A stretch of DNA of 64,000 nucleotides from an uncultured Syntrophaceae bacterium (GCA_964628025.1 CAZVLL010000004.1:118416-182415); one strand, 5' to 3'; positions 21,372 through 45,857 are shown, counted from the first letter of the stretch. Made by a program: numbers and translations. Notes: generated from the letters alone by a model not told the origin.

Positions 21372-22898
21372 ATGAGCCGATTCAACTACGAGGAACTTGC
21401 CGCTCTGCATACCATCGCGAAAATTCTGACCCAGACCGGTGAGCTGCGCGAACAGCTTGACAAGATCATGATCGAACTGAGCAAGCGCCTCGGAATGGAA
21501 CGCGGAATGATCTCCATCCTGGATCAGAAAACAGGAGAGACCTGGCTGGAAGTGGCCCGCGGGGTCGATATCGAAGGCCTCGACATCAGCTACAAGCCAG
21601 GCGAGGGAATCACGGGCAAGGTCGCTCAGACAGGACGGCCCATGGCCATCGCAAACCTGGGCAAGGAGAACCTCTTCCTTGACCGCACCGGCGCCCGGAA
21701 GCACCTCGACCGTTCCCAGCTTGCGTTCCTCTGTGTCCCCATCATCTACAACGGGAAGGTTGCGGGCGTGCTGTCGGCCGACAAACTCACCCACAAGGTC
21801 ACAGACCTCGAGGAGGAGGTGGCCATTTTATCGGCCGTGGCAGATCTCATCGCCAAGGCCGTTCACGGGCTGGGACTGGAGGAGGAAAACCGGCGGCTGC
21901 GGAAGATGCTCAGCCATACGCGAACCATCTCCACGGACATCATCGGGAATTCCAAGCCCATGCTGGACGTGCTCAACCTGATTTCCCAGGTGGCCGACTC
22001 GGGCACGACGGTCCTCATCAACGGGGAGACCGGAACAGGAAAAGAACTCGTGGCGCGGGCGATCCACTCCAACAGTCCCCGCAAGAACGGCCCCTTCATC
22101 CAGGTCAACTGCGCCGCCATGCCCGATACGCTCATTGAAAGCGAACTCTTCGGTCATGAGAAAGGGGCCTTCACCGGAGCCATCCAGCGGCGCCGCGGTC
22201 TCTTCGAGGAGGCCCACGGCGGGACTATTTTCCTCGACGAGATCGGGGAGCTTTCCCCGGCGGCACAAGCCAAGGTGCTTCGCGTGCTTCAGGAAAAACA
22301 GCTCCAGCCGGTTGGTTCTTCACGGACGGTCACGGTGAATGTCCGTATCATTGCGGCTACGAACCGGATCCTGGAACAGGATGTGGCCGAGGGTCGTTTC
22401 CGTGCGGACCTCTACTACCGGCTCAACGTGTTTCCCATCTACATGCCGAATCTGCGGGAGCGGGGAAGCGACATCATCCTGCTGACGGATCACTTCATCG
22501 TGAAGTATGCCAAGATACTCGTGAAGCGCGTAAAGAGGATTTCCACACCGGCACTGGACATGCTTCTCGCGTACCATTGGCCCGGGAATGTCCGCGAGCT
22601 GGAAAACTGCATCGAACGGGCCGTGATCCTGGCCCCCGGTGATTCCATCGAAAGCCCCCACCTGCCACCGTCGCTTCAGTTGAAATCGAAAGAGGCGGCA
22701 AAGACGGAACGGGGCAAACTCGAAACCCTCGTCAGTGCCTACGAGCGATCCCTGATCATTGACGCGCTGAAAGACGCCCGCGGCAACCAGAGCAAAGCGG
22801 CAAAATTTCTGGGAACGACGAAACGGATTATCCAGTACAAAATCACGAAATACGCCATCGATCCCCAGCGTTTCAAATCCAAACGGATTGCATCCTAA
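21372..22898 (+). CDS. NifA-like sigma54-dependent transcriptional activator (GAF-AAA+-HTH)
   Basis: N-terminal GAF ([21 protein letters not shown]), [31 protein letters not shown], Fis-type HTH. Confidence 0.93.
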
Positions 22899-23121: not shown

Positions 23122-23176
23122 CAATTCACGATACATAAGTTTTTCATTCCACAACAACCGGGCGGAGTGAAACATC

Positions 23177-23386
23177 ATGAACGTGGAAAAAATGGAGAGC
23201 AAAACAGTATCATCCCTAGCCAGTCTTATGAACGCTTATGAGCGTGCATTGATCATCGATGCGCTCGTAAGCACACTGGGAAATCAGAGTCAGGCGGCAA
23301 AACGGCTCGGCACATCCAAGAGGGTGATTCACTACAAGATACACAAATACGGGATCGACCCTCGCCGTTTCCGGATGGGCCTGTAG
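23177..23386 (+). CDS. Stand-alone Fis-type HTH protein, paralog of the upstream activator's DNA-binding domain
   Basis: SD GGAG; AYERALIIDAL....GNQSQAAKRLGTSKRVIHYKIHKYGIDP. Confidence 0.85.
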   Translation: MNVEKMESKTVSSLASLMNAYERALIIDALVSTLGNQSQAAKRLGTSKRVIHYKIHKYGIDPRRFRMGL

Positions 23387-36339: not shown

Positions 36340-36451
36340 TACAACCTTGTACAACTATCCATTAATTATACAATTGTGTATATCTCATCGAACGATACCA
36401 TTTGGCATCTTATTGATATATTTCATGTTTTGTGGTGGCCGGGGAATTGCA
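36340..36451 (+). promoter_or_regulatory. Paired boxes plus sigma54 promoter of amtB-PII operon 1
   Basis: TACAACCTTGTA 36340-36351, TACAATTGTGTA 36369-36380; TGGCCGGGGAATTGCA 36436-36451 (GG-N10-GC). Confidence 0.7.
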
Positions 36452-37773: not shown

Positions 37774-38160
37774 ATGCTGAAAAAAATCGAAGCGATCATT
37801 CGTGAAGACAAGGTCAACGATGTCGTGGACGCCCTGGCCGAAATCGGCATTGTGGGATTGAACATCTTTGAAGTGCGTGGCCACGGCCGCCAGGGAGGAA
37901 TCTCGCTTGTGGGCCGGGCCGGAACCTACCAGGTCAACATGCTGCCGAAAATCCAGGTCAACATCGTCCTGAGCGACCGCAACCTCGAGGCCGCCATCGA
38001 CGCCGTTCTCAACTCAGCCCGGACCGGGGAGCCCGGGGACGGTCTAATCTTTGTCTGTCCCGTGGACGAGGTGATTCGCATCCGGACGCGCGAGCGAGGC
38101 CAGGATGCCATGATGTATCCTGACGATATCGACGAAAAGAAGAAACGGAGTAAAGGGTGA
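37774..38160 (+). CDS. glnK: PII nitrogen regulatory protein 1 (divergent T-loop, C-terminal extension)
   Basis: GHGRQG, LPK, ARTGEPGDGLIFV, RIRT; follows amtB. Confidence 0.88.
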   Translation: MLKKIEAIIREDKVNDVVDALAEIGIVGLNIFEVRGHGRQGGISLVGRAGTYQVNMLPKIQVNIVLSDRNLEAAIDAVLNSARTGEPGDGLIFVCPVDEVIRIRTRERGQDAMMYPDDIDEKKKRSKG

Positions 38161-38185: not shown

Positions 38186-38902
38186 CTATTTGGCCGACAG
38201 GCCGTGAGCGGCTGAATCCCTCATTTCGTAATCCCCGTTCCGTCTCATCGCCCTGTAGATATCCAGAGTAATTTCTTTCGATAATGTTTCCATGGCCTTG
38301 CTCATGGACCGGGCCAGGGATTCGGCGCCTTGATTTTGCATGACCTGGACGGAGCGATAGTTTTTCTGGAACACCGTCCGGTCATGGGTATCCGGTCTGC
38401 TCGCTTTGAGGAGGGTCACATTCAGGGCAAGGACGGCATGGCTTCCGTTGCTGTCTTCCAGTTCGTACATTTCTTCGATGACGCCGCCAAGGTCATACAT
38501 GCCATTCTCCGCATCACCGGAAGAAAATACGCCTCTGAACAGGCCCGCGACTTTCAAATCGCGCAGGAGCAGATCCGATATCATGACGGACGGCTTGACC
38601 TTCCAGCGATGATAGGCGTCGTCGCCATACACAAAAGGTCTTGAACGGTACACCATGGACGTGGTGTTGAAGGTGCGGACGATAGAAAGAGGCTCTACCC
38701 GGATCGAGTCGTTTACAGGCTCCATCTCTTTGAATGCAGGGGCCGAATATTCCAGTGCGTAGTGACGGACGGAACCGGTGGATTTCCCGCCGGCCGCGCA
38801 CCCGCTCAGGAGGATCATTGCCGAACACAGACCCAATGCAAAACAGCGGATCATCAGGGCAGCGGGGAAAAGCCCCATTTTCCGGAACGTCCCTGTTCTC
38901 AT
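38186..38902 (-). CDS. ABC transport auxiliary lipoprotein (PqiC-like)
   Basis: Lipobox LSGC, YALEY, YHRWKVKPSVMI; last gene of MCE operon. Confidence 0.75.
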   Translation of the reverse strand: MRTGTFRKMGLFPAALMIRCFALGLCSAMILLSGCAAGGKSTGSVRHYALEYSAPAFKEMEPVNDSIRVEPLSIVRTFNTTSMVYRSRPFVYGDDAYHRWKVKPSVMISDLLLRDLKVAGLFRGVFSSGDAENGMYDLGGVIEEMYELEDSNGSHAVLALNVTLLKASRPDTHDRTVFQKNYRSVQVMQNQGAESLARSMSKAMETLSKEITLDIYRAMRRNGDYEMRDSAAHGLSAK

Positions 38903-39717
38903 GGCGCGGCCTCCCGGTGTGGTCTGGGGGAAGGCGCGCTGCTGAAGAGGATTTCCGACGGGTCCGCCTGAATCCTTTCAACGAACACCTCGAGATTTTC
39001 CGAGACCTGGCGGAGGTTCTCCGCGGTGATTTTCAAATCGGCGGAGATCCTGCGGGAATCCTTCTCCAGCCCTTCAAGGGTTTTCTGAGCCTGTCCTGAG
39101 GTTTCTTTCAGCTTCAGGCCGTCAAATTCGGTCCGGATGCCTTTCAGGGCAGTGCGCGCTTCCGCAATGGTCTCCCTCGTGCTGCTCAGGATTTCGTCTA
39201 CACCGCCTGTCGCCAGCAACCGGTCCGTGTGGCGGAAGGTCTTGTCGAGGTGGACCGTCGCGGATTCCAGCCTGTTGAGAACCTGTTTTGTCCTGGACGG
39301 GCGTGACGGGATGAGGGGATAAGGCGGATGGTGTCCCGGAGGAGCCGCGTCCAGAATCTCATCCTCTTTCTTTCGATCGAGGTCGATGAACACGATGCCG
39401 GTCAGTCCCGCCAGTTTCAATTCCGCACAGATATCGTTGCCCAGGCGTTCATTCACATTCAGCTTCATGACGACTTCGACCATGGCACTTGCCAGCTCCA
39501 CGCCGATCCTCTCGACCCTCCCGATGTTGACCCCCCTCAATTTCACACTGGAATCGGGGTTCAGCCCCTGGACGGATTCATCAAAATAGGTCACATAGGA
39601 CTTCCCGCCTTCAAAGAATTTCGAGGCGCCCAGCCACACGGTCGCGCCCACACCGATCACAGAACCGAGCATCACGAACAGTCCGAGCCAGATCTTCGAT
39701 GTCTTTTTCTTGGCCAT
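38899..39717 (-). CDS. MCE/MlaD family substrate-binding protein
   Basis: N-terminal TM, YFDESVQGL..DSSVKLRGVNIGRV, GLTGIVFIDL, helical tail. Confidence 0.88.
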   Translation of the reverse strand: MAKKKTSKIWLGLFVMLGSVIGVGATVWLGASKFFEGGKSYVTYFDESVQGLNPDSSVKLRGVNIGRVERIGVELASAMVEVVMKLNVNERLGNDICAELKLAGLTGIVFIDLDRKKEDEILDAAPPGHHPPYPLIPSRPSRTKQVLNRLESATVHLDKTFRHTDRLLATGGVDEILSSTRETIAEARTALKGIRTEFDGLKLKETSGQAQKTLEGLEKDSRRISADLKITAENLRQVSENLEVFVERIQADPSEILFSSAPSPRPHREAAP

Positions 39718-39720
39718 GTC

Positions 39721-40497
39721 TCAGGCGCCTCTACCGGGTCCCCTGTTGAAGAAATCAATGACCCTCGGGTCGGAGGCGCTTTCCCGCATGACTCGCGGGT
39801 CGCCCTCTGCGATGATCCCCCGGGCTTCTTTGTCCAGCATAATGATCCTATCGGCAATATCCAGGATCGAATTTAATTCATGGCTCACGATAATCATGGT
39901 CGTCCCCATGCCGGCATTGATGTCCTTCACGAGGCGGTCCAGTCCTGCCGAGGTCACCGGGTCCAGGCCCGCCGAAAGCTCATCCAGGAAAAGAATCTGC
40001 GGGTCGAGCGCCATGGCCCGTGCAATGCCGGCGCGCTTCTTCATCCCTCCTGATATCTCCGACGGAAGGCTATCCTCGTAGCCGGACAGATTGACCAGGC
40101 GGAGTTTCATCCTGACGATCTCATCGACAAAGTCCGGAGGAATGTCGGTATGTTCCAGCAGGGGAAGTGCGATATTCTCCGCCAGGGTCATCGATCCGAT
40201 CAAAGCACCGGACTGGAAAAGCACGCCAAACCTCTTTTTTGCCTGGAGCAGCGCGTCTTCATCGGCCGAGACCAGGTCCGTATCCTCGATGGAGACCCTG
40301 CCGTGATCGGGACGGTAGAGCCCGGTCATGCACTTGAGCAGCGTGGATTTCCCGCAACCGCTCTCCCCGACAATCACGAAGATCTCCCCCCGGAGCACCC
40401 GGAGGCTTACGTCTTCCAGAACGTGGTTGTCTCTGTAGTAGGCGGAGATTCCTTCCACTTCAACGACAGGCCGTTCTGACCCCCCCATTCCTTTCAT
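39721..40497 (-). CDS. MlaF-like ABC transporter ATP-binding protein
   Basis: GESGCGKST, FQSGAL, ISGGMKKRAGIARAMALDP, FLDE, SHEL. Confidence 0.9.
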   Translation of the reverse strand: MKGMGGSERPVVEVEGISAYYRDNHVLEDVSLRVLRGEIFVIVGESGCGKSTLLKCMTGLYRPDHGRVSIEDTDLVSADEDALLQAKKRFGVLFQSGALIGSMTLAENIALPLLEHTDIPPDFVDEIVRMKLRLVNLSGYEDSLPSEISGGMKKRAGIARAMALDPQILFLDELSAGLDPVTSAGLDRLVKDINAGMGTTMIIVSHELNSILDIADRIIMLDKEARGIIAEGDPRVMRESASDPRVIDFFNRGPGRGA

Positions 40498-40548
40498 TTC
40501 CTCTTCCTTTCGATACCCACTCGCTCCTTCTCTTCGGCCCGTTGGGAC

Positions 40549-41694
40549 CTAACGGATGTAATGCAGCATGATGGCGAATGCCGAATCCGTTATGATGACT
40601 AAAAAAATAGACGACACGACCGCGGATGTTGTCGCGGAACCGACAGCCTCCGCGCCCCCTCTTGCCTGGAAACCTCGATGGCAGGAGATTCCGGCGATTA
40701 ACGCAGCAAAGCACATGGCCTTGAACAAGCTCGACACGACGTCAAAGACTTCGATGCTCTCCATGGTTTGCTGCATATAGGAATAGACGGACAGATCCAT
40801 TCCGGTGATCCCCACAAAAAGCCCTCCAAGGATTCCCAGCAGGTCTGCATAGAGCGTCAGGATCGGTACAACCAGGATGGAGGCAATCACCTTCGGCACG
40901 ACAAGAAAGTTGACCGGCTCGAACCCCATCGTCGACAGGGCATCGATCTCTTCATTGACCCGCATCGTGCCGATTTCCGCCGAAAAAGCCGAACCGGAGC
41001 GCCCCGCGAAGATGATGGCCGTCATGATCGGGCCGAGTTCCTTTACAAGGGCAATGGCCACAAGCGATGCGACATAGATGTTGGCCCCAAACACCCGCAG
41101 TTGGAGAGAGGCCATGAAGGCCATGATGAGGCCCATCAGAATGCTGATCAGGCCCACAACGGGAAGGCCCTCCATCCCTGCCTTTTTCATGTAATACAGG
41201 ACGGCCTCCCATCGAACGGATCGCGGGCGAATCATACTGCGGGCAAGGGATACAGCCACGTCACCCACGAAGAGGCAGAGAAGATCCATGCGGTCAAACA
41301 ATCGGCTCAGGGCATTCTCCGCCCGTGCCAATACGTTCAGAGCCTTTTTCCCCGAAAGCCCTGTCGACTTTGTTTCCTCGTAAGCGACGATCCCGATCAT
41401 GCGTCGGGTTTCGGAGCTCATACCTGTTATACCGAGATGGATGGCTTTGCGGGCGGCTTTCTCCCGTGACAGGACGAGCGCCAGGGCACCTGCGCTGTCC
41501 AGGTACTCGATCCCGTTGAGGTCAAAGGTTAATTCCCCGTCCGTTGTCTTATCCAGCAGTATTTCAACGTCCGCCAGAAAATCCTTTACTGTATCAAGAG
41601 ATATCATTCCCGAGATGCCGACCGTCAGCGAACCGGGTTTTGCCGGTTCCGACTGGATAGAATATTTATTTGCAGGCTCGACAGATGAGTTCAT
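40549..41694 (-). CDS. MlaE-like ABC permease with N-terminal STAS domain
   Basis: DLNGIEYLDSAG (STAS), KELGPIMTAI..AGRSGSAFSAEIGTMRVNEEIDAL; start at ATG 41694. Confidence 0.9.
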   Translation of the reverse strand: MNSSVEPANKYSIQSEPAKPGSLTVGISGMISLDTVKDFLADVEILLDKTTDGELTFDLNGIEYLDSAGALALVLSREKAARKAIHLGITGMSSETRRMIGIVAYEETKSTGLSGKKALNVLARAENALSRLFDRMDLLCLFVGDVAVSLARSMIRPRSVRWEAVLYYMKKAGMEGLPVVGLISILMGLIMAFMASLQLRVFGANIYVASLVAIALVKELGPIMTAIIFAGRSGSAFSAEIGTMRVNEEIDALSTMGFEPVNFLVVPKVIASILVVPILTLYADLLGILGGLFVGITGMDLSVYSYMQQTMESIEVFDVVSSLFKAMCFAALIAGISCHRGFQARGGAEAVGSATTSAVVSSIFLVIITDSAFAIMLHYIR

Positions 41695-41873
41695 GGCACC
41701 CCGGATCATCAGAAAATAGCGTAATCTCCACTTTTGTATATCGGCAGATGGAAAGAATATATTCAGCAATTCCGGGAAGCGATCAGCGTTCCGTGTCACT
41801 GGTTCGTACAGGGCGATGGCGGCCCTGGCCGGTATCCGCCGGGCCCGGAGCATACGCACGCAGCGCCACATTT

Positions 41874-42038
41874 ATCATTATTGTTGCATTTATATATAAT
41901 AAAGACAATAACGTGCTTTATAAATTATTAGTATACATTATTGTATGATTATTTTCATGACCCCGTCGGAGATTATCTTATTTATATGTATTATATTGAA
42001 TACTTACAATATATTTTTCCCCTGGCACTTTTATTGCT
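41874..42038 (+). promoter_or_regulatory. Three boxes at 30-bp period plus sigma54 promoter of amtB-PII operon 2
   Basis: ATCATTATTGTT 41874, GACAATAACGTG 41904, TACATTATTGTA 41934; CTGGCACTTTTATTGCT 42022-42038 (GG-N10-GC). Confidence 0.8.
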
Positions 42039-42086
42039 CAGTTGAATAGCAAGTATTTGACAATTCCATCACAGGAGGGCTTTATC

Positions 42087-43322
42087 ATGAATACGGGCGA
42101 TACTGCTTGGGTGCTCATGTCGTCTGCACTCGTTCTTCTCATGACTATCCCCGGTCTTGCTTTTTTCTACGGCGGACTCGTCAGGAGAAAAAATGTTCTT
42201 TCCATTCTGATGCAATGCCTGATTATTCTTTGCGTCATCACGCTCCAGTGGGTCCTCTACGGGTATTCCCTGACCTTCGGTCCCGACGCCTGGAACGGGA
42301 TCATCGGCGGGCTCGACTGGGCCGGGCTGCGCAATGTCGGCGGCCAGCCCAATACCGATTACGCCGCGACCATTCCGCACTATGCCTTCATGATCTTTCA
42401 GTGCATGTTCGCAGTCATCACGCCGGCGCTGATCATCGGAACCTTTGCCGAGCGGATCAAGTTCTCGGCATTTCTGCTCTTCACGATCCTCTGGGCGACC
42501 TTTGTCTATAATCCGCTCGGGCACTGGGTCTGGGGAATGGGAGGATGGCTTCGGGATCTGGGGGCTCTCGACTTCGCAGGGGGCATCGTGGTTCACACCA
42601 GCTCGGGCGTATCGGCTCTTGTCCTGGCGCTCCTCATCGGAAAGAGGATCGGATTCGACAAAAGGGCCTTCACACCGCACAACCTGCCCTTCACGGTCAT
42701 GGGGGGCGCGCTGCTCTGGTTCGGATGGTTCGGGTTCAATGCAGGCAGCGCTTTGGCGGCCAATGAACTCGCGGCCAATGCCTTCGTTACAACTACCGTC
42801 GCGGCCTCCGCTGCAGGATTGACCTGGGCCATTATTGAATGGTTTAAGCACAAGGCTCCCACTGCCCTCGGCGCCATTTCAGGCGCAGTGGCGGGACTCG
42901 TCGCCATCACACCGGCCTGCGGGTTTGTAAACCCAATGAATGCCATCTTCATCGGGTTGCTCGCCAGTTTCTTCTGCTATTTCGCCATTGCGAAGGTGAA
43001 AGCCTTCTTCAAATATGACGACTCTCTCGATGTATTCGGCATCCACGGCGTCGGCGGCATCTGGGGAACTCTCGCCACGGGCCTGTTCGCGGAGAAGGCC
43101 GTCAACGAGGCCGGCGCCAACGGGTTGCTGTTCGGCAATGCGCAGCTTTTCTTCGTCCAGTGTCTTCTCGTTGTGGTGACCATCGCTTTCGCGGCGGTCA
43201 TGACCTGGATCATTTTCAAACTCGTCGACGCGTTGATGTGTGTCCGGGTGGAAAAGACCAAAGAGATTGTCGGTCTGGACCTTACCCAGCACAGCGAGTC
43301 GGCATACACCCTGGTCGACTAG
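42087..43322 (+). CDS. amtB: Ammonium transporter 2
   Basis: SD AGGAGG; PGLAFFYGG, FQCMFA, DFAGGIVVH, GWFGFNAGS, DDSLDVFGIHG. Confidence 0.95.
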   Translation: MNTGDTAWVLMSSALVLLMTIPGLAFFYGGLVRRKNVLSILMQCLIILCVITLQWVLYGYSLTFGPDAWNGIIGGLDWAGLRNVGGQPNTDYAATIPHYAFMIFQCMFAVITPALIIGTFAERIKFSAFLLFTILWATFVYNPLGHWVWGMGGWLRDLGALDFAGGIVVHTSSGVSALVLALLIGKRIGFDKRAFTPHNLPFTVMGGALLWFGWFGFNAGSALAANELAANAFVTTTVAASAAGLTWAIIEWFKHKAPTALGAISGAVAGLVAITPACGFVNPMNAIFIGLLASFFCYFAIAKVKAFFKYDDSLDVFGIHGVGGIWGTLATGLFAEKAVNEAGANGLLFGNAQLFFVQCLLVVVTIAFAAVMTWIIFKLVDALMCVRVEKTKEIVGLDLTQHSESAYTLVD

Positions 43323-43334
43323 GAGGCGCTCATC

Positions 43335-43676
43335 ATGAAATATATCATTGCCATCATCAAACCGCACAAACTGGACGACGTGATGAATGCGCTCGAAGAG
43401 GTCAACGTGAACCTGATGACCGTTTCCAACGTGCTTGGCCGGGGACGGCAGATGGGCATTACAGAGGTCTATCGGGGCGCCAAGGAAGTGGGGAGTCTCC
43501 TCAAGAAGGTAAAACTTGAAATCGCCGTCAACGAAGATTTTGTGGAGCCCACCATCCAGGCCCTTAGCAAGGGAGCCCGCACAGGCGAGATCGGAGACGG
43601 GAAAATCTTTGTTCTGGACCTTCCCGACGTCATCCGGATCCGCACCGGCGAACGCGGCGGGCCGGCGATCGGGTAA
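43335..43676 (+). CDS. glnK: PII nitrogen regulatory protein 2
   Basis: [41 protein letters not shown]. Confidence 0.92.
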
Positions 43677-43858
43677 AAAAACGGCATCGGGCGACGGGCT
43701 TCCGGTATCAGGAAATGAATGAGTCCCCTATCTTTTTTCTCTGATGCTTGTTGCCCGGCGCCTGAGGCCTTGATCCCTCAGGTCCTGTCATGAAGACAGA
43801 ACATGAAAAAAACCCTTGAATTCATCTTGCACGGGGATCCGGGTGCGATCACTCAGGA

Positions 43859-43994
43859 TACATATTGGTACACCACCCATGATAGTGATACATTATCGTA
43901 TCGCACACAGACGTCCTTGCCACGTCCGCTGCACGCATTAACCTTATCATATTCGTATCTTACATATTTTCTTATCATTGGCATCCGAATTGCT
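43859..43994 (+). promoter_or_regulatory. Paired boxes plus sigma54 promoter upstream of DapB-like gene
   Basis: TACATATTGGTA 43859-43870, TACATTATCGTA 43889-43900; TTGGCATCCGAATTGCT 43978-43994 (GG-N10-GC). Confidence 0.75.
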
Positions 43995-44025
43995 GCATGA
44001 TCAATTCGATACCGGGAGGTATTGT

Positions 44026-44073
44026 ATGCACATCCTGCTTTGCTGTTGCTTTATGATTGTGAGACAATGTTAG
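44026..44073 (+). other. Candidate 15-aa Cys-rich leader ORF (MHILLCCCFMIVRQC)
   Basis: GGGAGGT 5 nt before ATG 44026, TAG 44071-44073. Confidence 0.3.
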
Positions 44074-44098
44074 GTGAGCATAATGGCGGGAGAAAACC

Positions 44099-44632
44099 AT
44101 GGTGAGGGCTGTCGTAACAGGCGTGAGCACCAAGATGGGCAGCAGACTCATGCAGCTCGTCTATGAAACGGATGGCATCGAACTCGTCGGGGCCGTGGAC
44201 AGCCGCGAAAGCCGTTATGTAGGCCAGGATGCCGGCGAGATCAATCAGCTGGGGTTTTTTGGTGTGCCCGTCGTCGATGACCTTCGGGATTGCATCAAGC
44301 ACAGCTGTGTGGTCATCGACTTTACGGAAAAGGAATCTTCCCTGACCCACCTCAAAATCGCTGCCGAGCACAAGACGTCGATGGTGATGGGAACCATGGG
44401 ATTCATGCTCGACGAAATGGACCGCATCCGCGAGCTGACCAAAAAGACTCGCTGCGTTCTCGTGCCCAATGTAAGCCCCGCTCTTTTCAGCGAGATGGGA
44501 GCGGGCGTAGAGCTGATTTACCGCTCCTTTATCCGGGACACTTTCGCACGGGAGGCCATCGCCGCCGCGAAATGGATCGTGAAGCAGAAGAATGGGCTGT
44601 ACGACATGCAGGACGTCCTCGGACTGAAATAA
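44099..44632 (+). CDS. DapB (dihydrodipicolinate reductase)-derived protein lacking the substrate-binding/catalytic domain
   Basis: DapB N-domain (VGQDAGE, VIDFT, GTMG, PNVS) joined in frame to DapB C-terminal tail (RDTFAR..IAAAKW....NGLYDMQDVLGL); no HHxxK.DAPSGTA motif. Confidence 0.8.
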   Translation: MVRAVVTGVSTKMGSRLMQLVYETDGIELVGAVDSRESRYVGQDAGEINQLGFFGVPVVDDLRDCIKHSCVVIDFTEKESSLTHLKIAAEHKTSMVMGTMGFMLDEMDRIRELTKKTRCVLVPNVSPALFSEMGAGVELIYRSFIRDTFAREAIAAAKWIVKQKNGLYDMQDVLGLK

Positions 44633-44855
44633 ATCTCGTGAAAATCCTTAAGCCCACTCTTTCCTTTCGATTTATCCAACCTCTCCTGTTTCTGTCCTAA
44701 CGACAGATGACTTCGCTATCACTATCAAATTTTATCCTGACCACCCTTTCACCTCAAGTTCTCAACCTCACTGTGTTAATAAGATCGAAGATTATCGTTT
44801 GAAAGCATTAGCGCTTGCAGGAGAAGGCAAGCTGATACTCGTGGCCGCAGCGGGG

Positions 44856-45857
44856 TCAGGGAGCTTCTGTCATGATTTCATTGGACAGCGGCTGCCCAGC
44901 GGAGAATTCGTTGATACTGTTAATCGTGGTTTCACAGATGGTCGAAATCGCTTCCTGGGTGAAAAAGGCCTGATGTCCGGTGACAATCACATTCGGAAAT
45001 GATAGGAGGCGTTGGAAAATGTCGTCGGAAATGATTGTGCTCGACAGGTCGCGGAAAAAGAGATCTGCCTCCTGCTCATAGACGTCGATTGCCAGGCCGC
45101 CGAGTTGCCCGCTCTTGAGGGCCTCGATCGCCGCTTCGGTGTCGACCAGCCCGCCGCGGCTGGTATTGACCAGTAAGGCGCCGCGCTTGGCGCGGGACAG
45201 TGTGTCCGCATTGATAATGTGGTGCGTTTCGGGTGTCAGGGGGCAGTGCAGAGAGATAATATCGGCCCTGGCGCCGATTTCGCCCGGCTGCGCATAGCGG
45301 ACTCCAAGGGCTTCAAACTCGGCTGAAGGGTACTTATCGTAGCCAATCACCTCGCAGCCGAACCCTAGCATGATGCGTGCAAACACACGCCCGATCTTGC
45401 CGGTCCCGACCACGGCGACTGTCTTGCCGTGTAGATCGAAGCCCATCAGTCCGTCGAGCGCGAAGTTGGAATCACGGGTCCGGTTGTAGGCCCGGTGAAT
45501 CTTGCGGTTGATAGCGAGGAGGAGGGCGACGGCATGTTCGGCGACCGAGTACGGTGAGTAGGTGACGACACGCACCACCTTGATGCCGAAACGCGCTGCG
45601 GCGCGCAGATCGACGTTATTGAAGCCGGTGCAGCGCAGGGTGACAAGACGCGTTCCCCCGTGAGATAGCGTTTCCAGGACATCTGCGTCAGCCTTGTCAT
45701 TGACGAATATGCATACGGCATCGTACGCGTGTGCAAGCGATGCCGTTTCCCGCTCCAGCGGCACATCGAAATAGGTAATCCGGTGACCGGAGGCGGCATT
45801 GGCTGCGTCCAGGTAATCGCGGTCATAACGCTTGGCGCTGAATACGGCTATGTTCAT
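44856..45857 (-). CDS. ldhA: D-lactate dehydrogenase (D-2-hydroxyacid dehydrogenase)
   Basis: VCIFVND, LRCTGFNNVDL, YSPYSVAEH, GTGKIG, NTSRG, DVYEQE, TGHQAF. Confidence 0.88.
   Translation of the reverse strand: MNIAVFSAKRYDRDYLDAANAASGHRITYFDVPLERETASLAHAYDAVCIFVNDKADADVLETLSHGGTRLVTLRCTGFNNVDLRAAARFGIKVVRVVTYSPYSVAEHAVALLLAINRKIHRAYNRTRDSNFALDGLMGFDLHGKTVAVVGTGKIGRVFARIMLGFGCEVIGYDKYPSAEFEALGVRYAQPGEIGARADIISLHCPLTPETHHIINADTLSRAKRGALLVNTSRGGLVDTEAAIEALKSGQLGGLAIDVYEQEADLFFRDLSSTIISDDIFQRLLSFPNVIVTGHQAFFTQEAISTICETTINSINEFSAGQPLSNEIMTEAP

Follow-up and report, generated by a model that had tools for sequence, protein, structure and literature searches.

The question raised by the locus studied here is whether a dapB-like gene that lies behind an ammonium transporter and PII gene pair, and that has lost the catalytic part of the enzyme in frame, is debris of a biosynthetic gene or a protein with a use of its own. 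The gene is found in a stretch of 64,000 nt from an uncultured Syntrophaceae bacterium (GCA_964628025.1 CAZVLL010000004.1:118416-182415), which was analysed as a whole and is referred to as the window; positions are counted from its first nucleotide. The comparisons described below suggest that the short DapB is probably a DapB-derived pseudoenzyme that was recruited to nitrogen control.

A DapB homologue lacking the inserted domain

The gene, its parts and the two genes upstream of it are located as follows.

42042-43322, plus strand: amtB2, ammonium transporter (PF00909, E 9.8e-134), with the open reading frame start as listed
43335-43676, plus strand: glnK2, PII protein with Glu at position 51 (Pfam), directly upstream of the short DapB
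44088-44092, plus strand: ribosome-binding site GGGAG, 6 nt 5' of the ATG, read directly
44099-44632, plus strand: coding sequence of the short DapB paralogue, 177 aa plus stop, frame intact
44099-44476, plus strand: first segment of the nucleotide-binding domain, residues 1-126, with the degenerate loop GVSTKMG
44477-44530, plus strand: remnant of the missing domain (its final two strands), residues 127-144, starting at the junction
44531-44629, plus strand: C-terminal helix and strand returning to the nucleotide-binding domain, residues 145-177 (RDTFAREAIAAAKW...NGLYDMQDVLGLK)

The true start of amtB2 may be an ATG near 42089. The Pfam calls on the open reading frame and on the upstream genes agree with the first-pass annotation, in which an intact frame of 177 aa had been read directly after amtB2-glnK2. 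Pfam DapB_N (PF01113) matched residues 3-124 with model positions 2-123 of 124 (E 3.9e-31) which, together with the DapB fold of the model described below, identifies a DapB N-domain. For DapB_C (PF05173) only model positions 65-121 of 121 were matched, on residues 118-174, and the HHxxK and DAPSGTA stretches expected of a DapB C-domain are absent. The DapB equivalog model TIGR00036 (EC 1.17.1.8, cut-off 122 bits) matched in two pieces, model positions 2-132 and 224-270 of 270, and the score of 116.2 bits leaves the short protein outside the equivalog. A full-length dapB had been expected elsewhere in the genome and was found on another contig with a TIGR00036 score of 296.9 bits; this real DapB and the short form are 47-49% identical over residues 1-129.

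When the short protein was aligned with full-length DapBs, 90 columns were absent, HHxxKKDAPSGTA among them, which is the size and content originally estimated for the missing region. The deletion is in frame and extends from directly after PNVS to directly before P-A-L-F, so that the junction reads ...VPNVS/PALFSEMGAG... (S126/P127). The N-domain had been described as running to PNVS and then joining a C-terminal tail that begins at RDTFAR; the join after PNVS was upheld, but the tail proved to be longer, since about 18 residues (127-144) precede RDTFAR. These residues are near-invariant within the genus. The alignment also bears out the reading of the glycine loop as GVSTKMG and gives GTMG for the second motif, so that neither the GxxGxxG loop nor the G-[ST]-T-G motif is intact. 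Residues 2-126 align to residues 6-130 of 1arz and residues 127-177 to residues 226-276 of 4ywj.

According to the structural report PMC5962572, the N-terminal cofactor domain of a DapB orthologue is discontinuous and consists of residues 1-127 and 235-264, the C-terminal domain at 128-234 serves substrate binding and tetramer formation, and the N-domains sit outside the tetramer core. Given these domain limits, the inserted domain has been removed almost exactly and the cofactor domain has been left whole. PMC5962572 is also in line with the catalytic and tetramerisation role that had been ascribed to the missing region, in that it places substrate binding and tetramer formation there. Because the catalytic domain is absent the short form cannot be a DapB, and it is predicted to have lost catalysis.

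Structure prediction of the protein alone, which had been suggested as a check, gave a compact domain (AlphaFold2, pLDDT 91.8, pTM 0.89). The weaker part of the model was confined to residues 121-140, with blocks at pLDDT 75 and 62, and the remnant at 127-144 was modelled at this lower confidence as a helix and not as strands. The top solved structures matched by the model in Foldseek were all DapB, with TMq values of about 0.8 (best 4ywj, E 2e-14, TMq 0.83). Amine dehydrogenases that have an N-domain like that of DapB came next. The observation of an excised DapB copy is thus confirmed.

Distribution and origin of the short form

A search for homologues with the same deletion and with amtB-glnK synteny had also been proposed, and both were found, the synteny across three clades. 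In the protein database 33 clusters spanned the whole short-DapB query at 53-100% identity and could be divided into clade A (21 clusters at 72-100% identity, 177 aa except for two longer gene calls) and clade B (12 clusters at 53-57% identity, 178-188 aa), with an identical junction in the alignment of the two clades. The next matches were full-length DapBs of 267-272 aa that covered just 71% of the query. Within the genus of the window, 14/17 genomes carried the short form, and among these 14 copies 12 were intact and full length, one ran into the end of a contig and one (G010) was broken in frame; in the sister genus it was present in 2/4 genomes. Full-length dapB was present in 40/40 relatives examined, and an order-wide search found it in nearly every genome searched. 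Two short-form-specific peptide patterns identified 14 loci among 185,579 species genomes (one per species), all of them in MAGs labelled Syntrophaceae, Syntrophales, Syntrophobacterales or delta proteobacterium.

The order-wide search for short forms, which covered 338 genomes and then five individual genomes, gave contiguous matches only in families f1 and f13. The latter, another Syntrophales family, holds a third short-form clade (clade C) in which the protein is 158 aa long in four genomes (G275, G276, G269 and G271) and 145 aa in G033, with 36-45% identity to the window protein; four other f13 genomes gave no contiguous match to the clade A query. The clade C proteins are without the remnant hairpin too and consist of the cofactor domain alone, with a loop that reads GAGR[KL][IM]G and that is gone altogether in G033. 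The form from G275 was modelled at pLDDT 95.7. In the protein database only four clusters were found for this clade.

In a tree of 52 sequences (LG+G4), built on the alignment columns that the window protein occupies, clades A and B together stood apart from everything else with a support of 100 and clade C was monophyletic with a support of 97, and the branch dividing all short from all full-length forms received a support of 22. With this last value, the short forms may go back either to one excision with a further deletion later on or to two separate excisions. The right-hand junctions differ between clades A/B and clade C, and the excisions in the two groups may have been separate events.

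The nearest cluster in the ESM Atlas was a 158-aa 'DapB N-terminus domain-containing' cluster of 114 members, from which no new lead followed. Database sources that name the short forms call them 4-hydroxy-tetrahydrodipicolinate reductase, which is a mis-annotation. No curated family for the short form was present among the Pfam and NCBIfam matches, and literature searches on titles and abstract openings found no description of a short DapB.

Purifying selection on the short gene

Rates of substitution were calculated according to Nei-Gojobori for 45 pairs from 10 congeneric genomes, each with a retrieved dapB sequence and a complete short copy, a requirement that excluded another five genomes. 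For the short gene dN was 0.073 and dS 0.878, with a median dN/dS of 0.088, as compared to a median of 0.095 for the full-length dapB in this set of genomes. Within the short gene residues 1-60 evolved fastest (dN 0.161), residues 61-126 were intermediate (dN 0.052) and the last 51 codons, residues 127-177, were almost frozen with a dN of 0.007 at a dS of 0.79. Two pairs from clade C gave dN/dS values of 0.07 and 0.10.

These values bear on the simplest explanation of a truncated gene, which is that it represents a decaying pseudogene or an artefact of the assembly. Such a view would accommodate the TIGR00036 score below the cut-off as well as the individual copies that are broken in G018 or interrupted by frame breaks in G010 and G270, but the same junction is found in the 33 database clusters and in 16 related genomes, and the frames are intact with a dN/dS of 0.09 at dS values up to approximately 1. 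We therefore consider that this explanation can practically be dismissed. Three of the conditions named at the outset as fatal to a functional reading, i.e. a deletion unique to one assembly, an assembly artefact or neutral evolution, are contradicted by the 16 genomes and by the median dN/dS. An identical deletion in many genomes, purifying selection, conserved synteny and a retained dapB together indicate a repurposed gene rather than debris, as the first-pass annotation had proposed. The short DapB is an enzyme homologue without the catalytic residues, it is under purifying selection and the true enzyme is kept in the same genomes; with its inactivity taken from the missing residues, it is almost certainly a selected pseudoenzyme.

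In the two genomes with frame breaks these were shared with neighbouring genes. In G270 (L069 3100-7050) amtB, glnK and the short dapB are frame-broken together, and in G010 (L033 5000-7900) amtB2 and the short dapB are; either error-prone assemblies or decay of the whole cluster would account for this.

A sigma54-type promoter with paired upstream boxes

The region between glnK2 and the short dapB contains three putative regulatory elements.

43858-43871, plus strand: upstream box 1, weak, with 4 mismatches to ATACATTATYGTAT, 30 bp before box 2
43888-43901, plus strand: upstream box 2, exact (ATACATTATCGTAT), 91 bp before the promoter, a presumed sigma54-activator site
43979-43994, plus strand: sigma54-type -24/-12 promoter TGGCATCCGAATTGCT, TGGCAT-N5-TTGCT

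The strict sigma54 pattern occurred only twice in the 64 kb, at 43979 and, for amtB2, at 42023, as compared to 0.08 occurrences expected by chance. The 14-nt box ATACATTATYGTAT had exact copies only at 43888 and 41933, that is 91 and 90 bp before the promoters of the short dapB and amtB2, respectively, and when up to two mismatches were allowed there were 5 matches versus 0.12 expected. Both boxes, the promoter and the nearly equal distances of 91 and 90 bp had been noted in the first reading of the sequence and were all recovered. With mismatches allowed, paired ATACA-N4-TGTAY-like boxes spaced 29-30 bp apart were seen upstream of four nitrogen genes, a gltB-like gene (23411/23440), amtB1 (36339/36368), amtB2 (41903/41933) and the short dapB (43858/43888), and probably represent the operator design of one activator. 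For amtB1 a sigma54-type promoter, TGGCCG-N5-TTGCA, was recognised by eye at 36436.

Among congeneric loci 11/13 had a strict sigma54 match 120-286 nt before the ATG, and the box-like columns were conserved in an alignment of 11 promoters. No strict match was present in the two remaining congeneric loci, L029 (where the spacer to glnK2 is about 160 bp) and L039, or upstream of two sister-genus loci, one of which has just 85 nt of upstream sequence. Given a -24/-12 promoter and activator boxes that are common to amtB and gltB, it is very likely, as judged from these motifs, that the short dapB belongs to a sigma54 nitrogen regulon. Since its sigma54 promoter comes with paired boxes of the kind that amtB1, amtB2 and the gltB-like gene also have, it is predicted to be expressed under nitrogen limitation.

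A gene for a GAF-AAA+-HTH activator, with domains assigned by eye from the translation, is located at 21372-22898. Directly after it and directly before the boxes of the gltB-like gene there is a stand-alone open reading frame of about 68 aa (23171-23386, plus strand) that resembles the C-terminal Fis-type HTH end of a sigma54 activator, and G012 has an HTH-only fragment of similar kind in the interval from glnK2 to the short dapB (L039, about 640-760). With this HTH-only frame the regulon may contain one more 'domain-only' paralogue besides the short DapB.

Other signals were sought in the region without success. Rfam gave no match on 41500-45000 (E up to 1), a simple terminator scan of 43300-45000 found none, and one sigma70-like site at 44057-44084 was no more than expected by chance. 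In 13 congeneric loci the 130 nt before the ATG were unconserved with the exception of the ribosome-binding site, a purine-rich site ahead of CCATG, and no leader element is therefore proposed. No RNA sequencing run containing 43300-44700 was listed.

Gene order and co-loss with amtB-glnK

The position of the short gene relative to amtB-glnK was conserved. In 12/12 congeneric loci examined glnK2 was immediately 5' of the short dapB, and in 10/10 congeneric loci with enough flank the order was amtB1-glnK1-amtB2-glnK2-short dapB, with a downstream neighbour that varied. In the sister genus the short dapB is 3.7 kb from amtB-glnK-glnA, past flotillin-like and lipoprotein genes. In clade C it starts 43-90 bp after glnK in four loci, two of which have it between two amtB-glnK pairs, and in G033 it is divergent from amtB-glnK. 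The surrounding 20 kb of the window contain a split glutamate synthase, glnA, carA, carB, an amidotransferase and both amtB-glnK pairs.

Two further observations concern the flanks. Four genes on the opposite strand (38186-41871, minus strand) separate amtB1-glnK1 from amtB2-glnK2 in the window; two of these were identified by Pfam (ABC auxiliary lipoprotein and MlaD) and an ATPase and a permease were named by reading alone. Given that the amtB-glnK pairs adjoin in 10 related genomes, the block looks like an insertion. On the other side, a convergent gene for a D-2-hydroxyacid dehydrogenase (44856-45857, minus strand) ends 224 bp past the short dapB and is not kept at that position in the relatives examined.

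In the family of the window five genomes are without the short gene (G017, G020, G018, G003 and G013, with a completeness of 100, 100, 99, 86 and 68%, respectively). None of the five gave a match to PF00909 or to the AmtB2 of the window, searches in which all 14 control genomes were positive, and their PII matches were sub-threshold or borderline with only 24.5-31.6 bits. A remnant of the clade B form is left at the syntenic place in G018 (L037 4998-5430); it has lost the N-terminus, carries TGA in place of a conserved Cys codon and is frameshifted close to its end. The adjoining flotillin-glnA-glnK-amtB block has been lost from this genome. Related genomes are not independent and the co-loss may thus correspond to two or three events, and the direction is clear: the short gene does not persist without amtB-glnK. 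From this and from the gene order it is likely that the function of the short DapB depends on AmtB-GlnK.

The converse dependence was examined for GlnK2. A PII protein of this type (68-93% identical) was found in 183/239 near-complete genomes of the order, almost all of which are without a short DapB, and a GlnK2 type specific to short-DapB genomes was thereby ruled out. As GlnK2-type PII mostly occurs without it, the short DapB would be an optional add-on and not a general partner.

Possible functions of the short protein

Nine positions are fixed differently in clades A and B as compared to full-length DapB, and all of them are between residues 125 and 155, i.e. in the junction, the remnant and the returning helix, which form the face that once abutted the lost domain. 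Taken with gene order, co-loss and promoter design, a remodelled and constrained face points to a protein-binding accessory of AmtB-GlnK. The mechanism we propose is that the short DapB is a non-catalytic DapB paralogue composed of the discontinuous nucleotide-binding domain alone, which would have arisen by in-frame excision of the inserted domain for substrate binding and tetramerisation and which purifying selection has since maintained. Under nitrogen limitation it would be made together with an ammonium transporter and the PII protein of that transporter, and it would act as a small, probably monomeric accessory that binds protein within the AmtB-GlnK uptake and signalling module. Its binding face would be the remodelled residues at approximately 125-160, the former seat of the lost domain, and it would be neither a reductase nor a canonical NAD(P)H sensor. 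A non-catalytic, protein-binding accessory of the AmtB-GlnK module is in our judgement the best explanation overall, although with a confidence only slightly better than even. Direct binding to GlnK or AmtB is a more tentative suggestion that we place somewhat below an even chance, and a complex prediction with three copies of GlnK2 and the short DapB (score 0.10) weighs neither for nor against it. The near-invariant C-terminal part could also reflect a structural healing of the excision rather than an interface.

The properties of GlnK2 may be relevant here. GlnK2 has Glu at position 51 and an unusual T-loop; GlnK1 (37777-38112) has Tyr51. The genome contained no GlnD equivalog, the best match reaching 54.7 bits against a cut-off of 519 bits. 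Given the lack of a GlnD equivalog and the Glu51, GlnK2 is not expected to be controlled by uridylylation, and some other modulator is plausible. Of the three examples of function that the first-pass annotation offered, a nucleotide sensor, a PII partner and an inhibitor of the true DapB, the PII partner would fit the genomic evidence best, and the other two were weakened as described below.

If the protein were a sensor of NAD(P)H or of the redox state, its isolated Rossmann domain would bind a dinucleotide in the manner of DapB and report the redox state to nitrogen assimilation; the logic would be analogous to that of NmrA or Rex. The fold is intact as judged from AlphaFold2 and Foldseek, and several features of a dinucleotide site are kept in clades A and B: the acidic residue that ends strand 2 (29/30 sequences), the first and the last Gly of the loop (29/30 each), Lys12 (18/30) and, in clade B, the complete GxxGxxG. 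However, the short forms vary at three positions that are invariant in full-length DapBs. The middle Gly of GxxGxxG occurs in 64/64 full-length proteins, 14/30 of clades A and B and 0/5 of clade C, the Thr of G-[ST]-T-G in 64/64, 10/30 and 1/5, respectively, and Asn124 in 64/64 full-length proteins and 19/30 of clades A and B. According to PMC5962572, the motif Thr of PaDHDPR (Thr100) bonds the nicotinamide ribose and the substrate. The G033 form is without the whole loop, and the N-terminal 60 codons are the fastest and the C-terminal part the slowest part of the gene, which is opposite to what a conserved dinucleotide site predicts. The relaxed nucleotide-motif residues argue against a canonical NAD(P)H sensor, canonical NAD(P)H binding in all clades is unlikely, and we judge the sensor to be an unlikely account of the gene.

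An antagonist or modulator of the true DapB appears still less probable. Here the remnant hairpin would, for example, cap the beta-sheet that builds the tetramer and thereby reduce the diaminopimelate/lysine flux under nitrogen limitation. It would suit a DapB paralogue that is accompanied by the full enzyme in every genome and that in clades A and B retains about 18 residues of the tetramerisation domain under extreme constraint. Yet the short form no longer has the domain through which DapB forms its tetramer, and PMC5962572 places the N-domains outside the core of that tetramer. Moreover, clade C is without the hairpin and has the same gene neighbourhood, the model shows the remnant as a helix rather than strands, at lower confidence, and the presence of the short form follows amtB-glnK and not dapB, which is near-ubiquitous in the genomes searched. 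With the tetramer interface gone and clade C hairpin-less, tetramer poisoning is unlikely. The least probable of the functional alternatives, with a very small chance in our estimate, is a subunit of a new enzyme in which the nucleotide-binding domain provides hydride transfer to a substrate site supplied in trans. DapB-like N-domains do serve other enzymes, as illustrated by the amine dehydrogenases among the structural matches, but no second gene besides amtB-glnK is conserved, the downstream neighbours differ and the dinucleotide motifs are relaxed.

Significance and comparison with known systems

PII proteins and AmtB together make up one of the most widespread signalling modules of prokaryotes and new partners are found only occasionally. 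The accessory favoured here would be a candidate PII/AmtB partner marked by gene order across two families, by co-loss and by a common promoter design. It is at the same time a tidy natural pseudoenzyme, which arose when a discontinuous two-domain enzyme lost precisely its inserted domain, and a protein that is small, models at high confidence and is easy to test. It might even stand for a novel kind of accessory to AmtB-GlnK, in which a biosynthetic enzyme was turned, by the clean loss of its inserted catalytic domain, into a module that binds PII or the transporter; we regard this as doubtful at present. If it were true, Syntrophaceae without GlnD and with a GlnK2 that lacks Tyr51 would gain an alternative tuning of ammonium uptake, or ammonium uptake might instead be coupled to a nucleotide-like signal. 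Uncultured syntrophic Syntrophaceae matter in anaerobic digestion, where ammonium levels control performance.

With DapB (TIGR00036; PF01113 and PF05173; 4YWJ, 1ARZ, 5Z2E) the short form shares the nucleotide-binding fold including the returning C-terminal helix and strand. It differs in that the substrate-binding and tetramerisation domain is missing, that GxxGxxG and G-[ST]-T-G are relaxed and that the gene is situated in a nitrogen regulon and not in a lysine-pathway context. PipX and PirC are small PII-binding accessory proteins and NmrA is a dead Rossmann-fold regulator; the likeness of the short DapB to these is one of concept, that of a non-enzymatic protein in nitrogen control, and no kinship in sequence or fold is expected. 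A parallel in gene order is the actinobacterial amtB-glnK-glnD operon, in which glnD is the third gene. The short DapB has no homology to GlnD, its own genome is without a GlnD equivalog and its GlnK2 carries Glu51. Like glnD in that operon, however, the short dapB comes third, immediately after amtB-glnK, and a role confined to the PII module is plausible.
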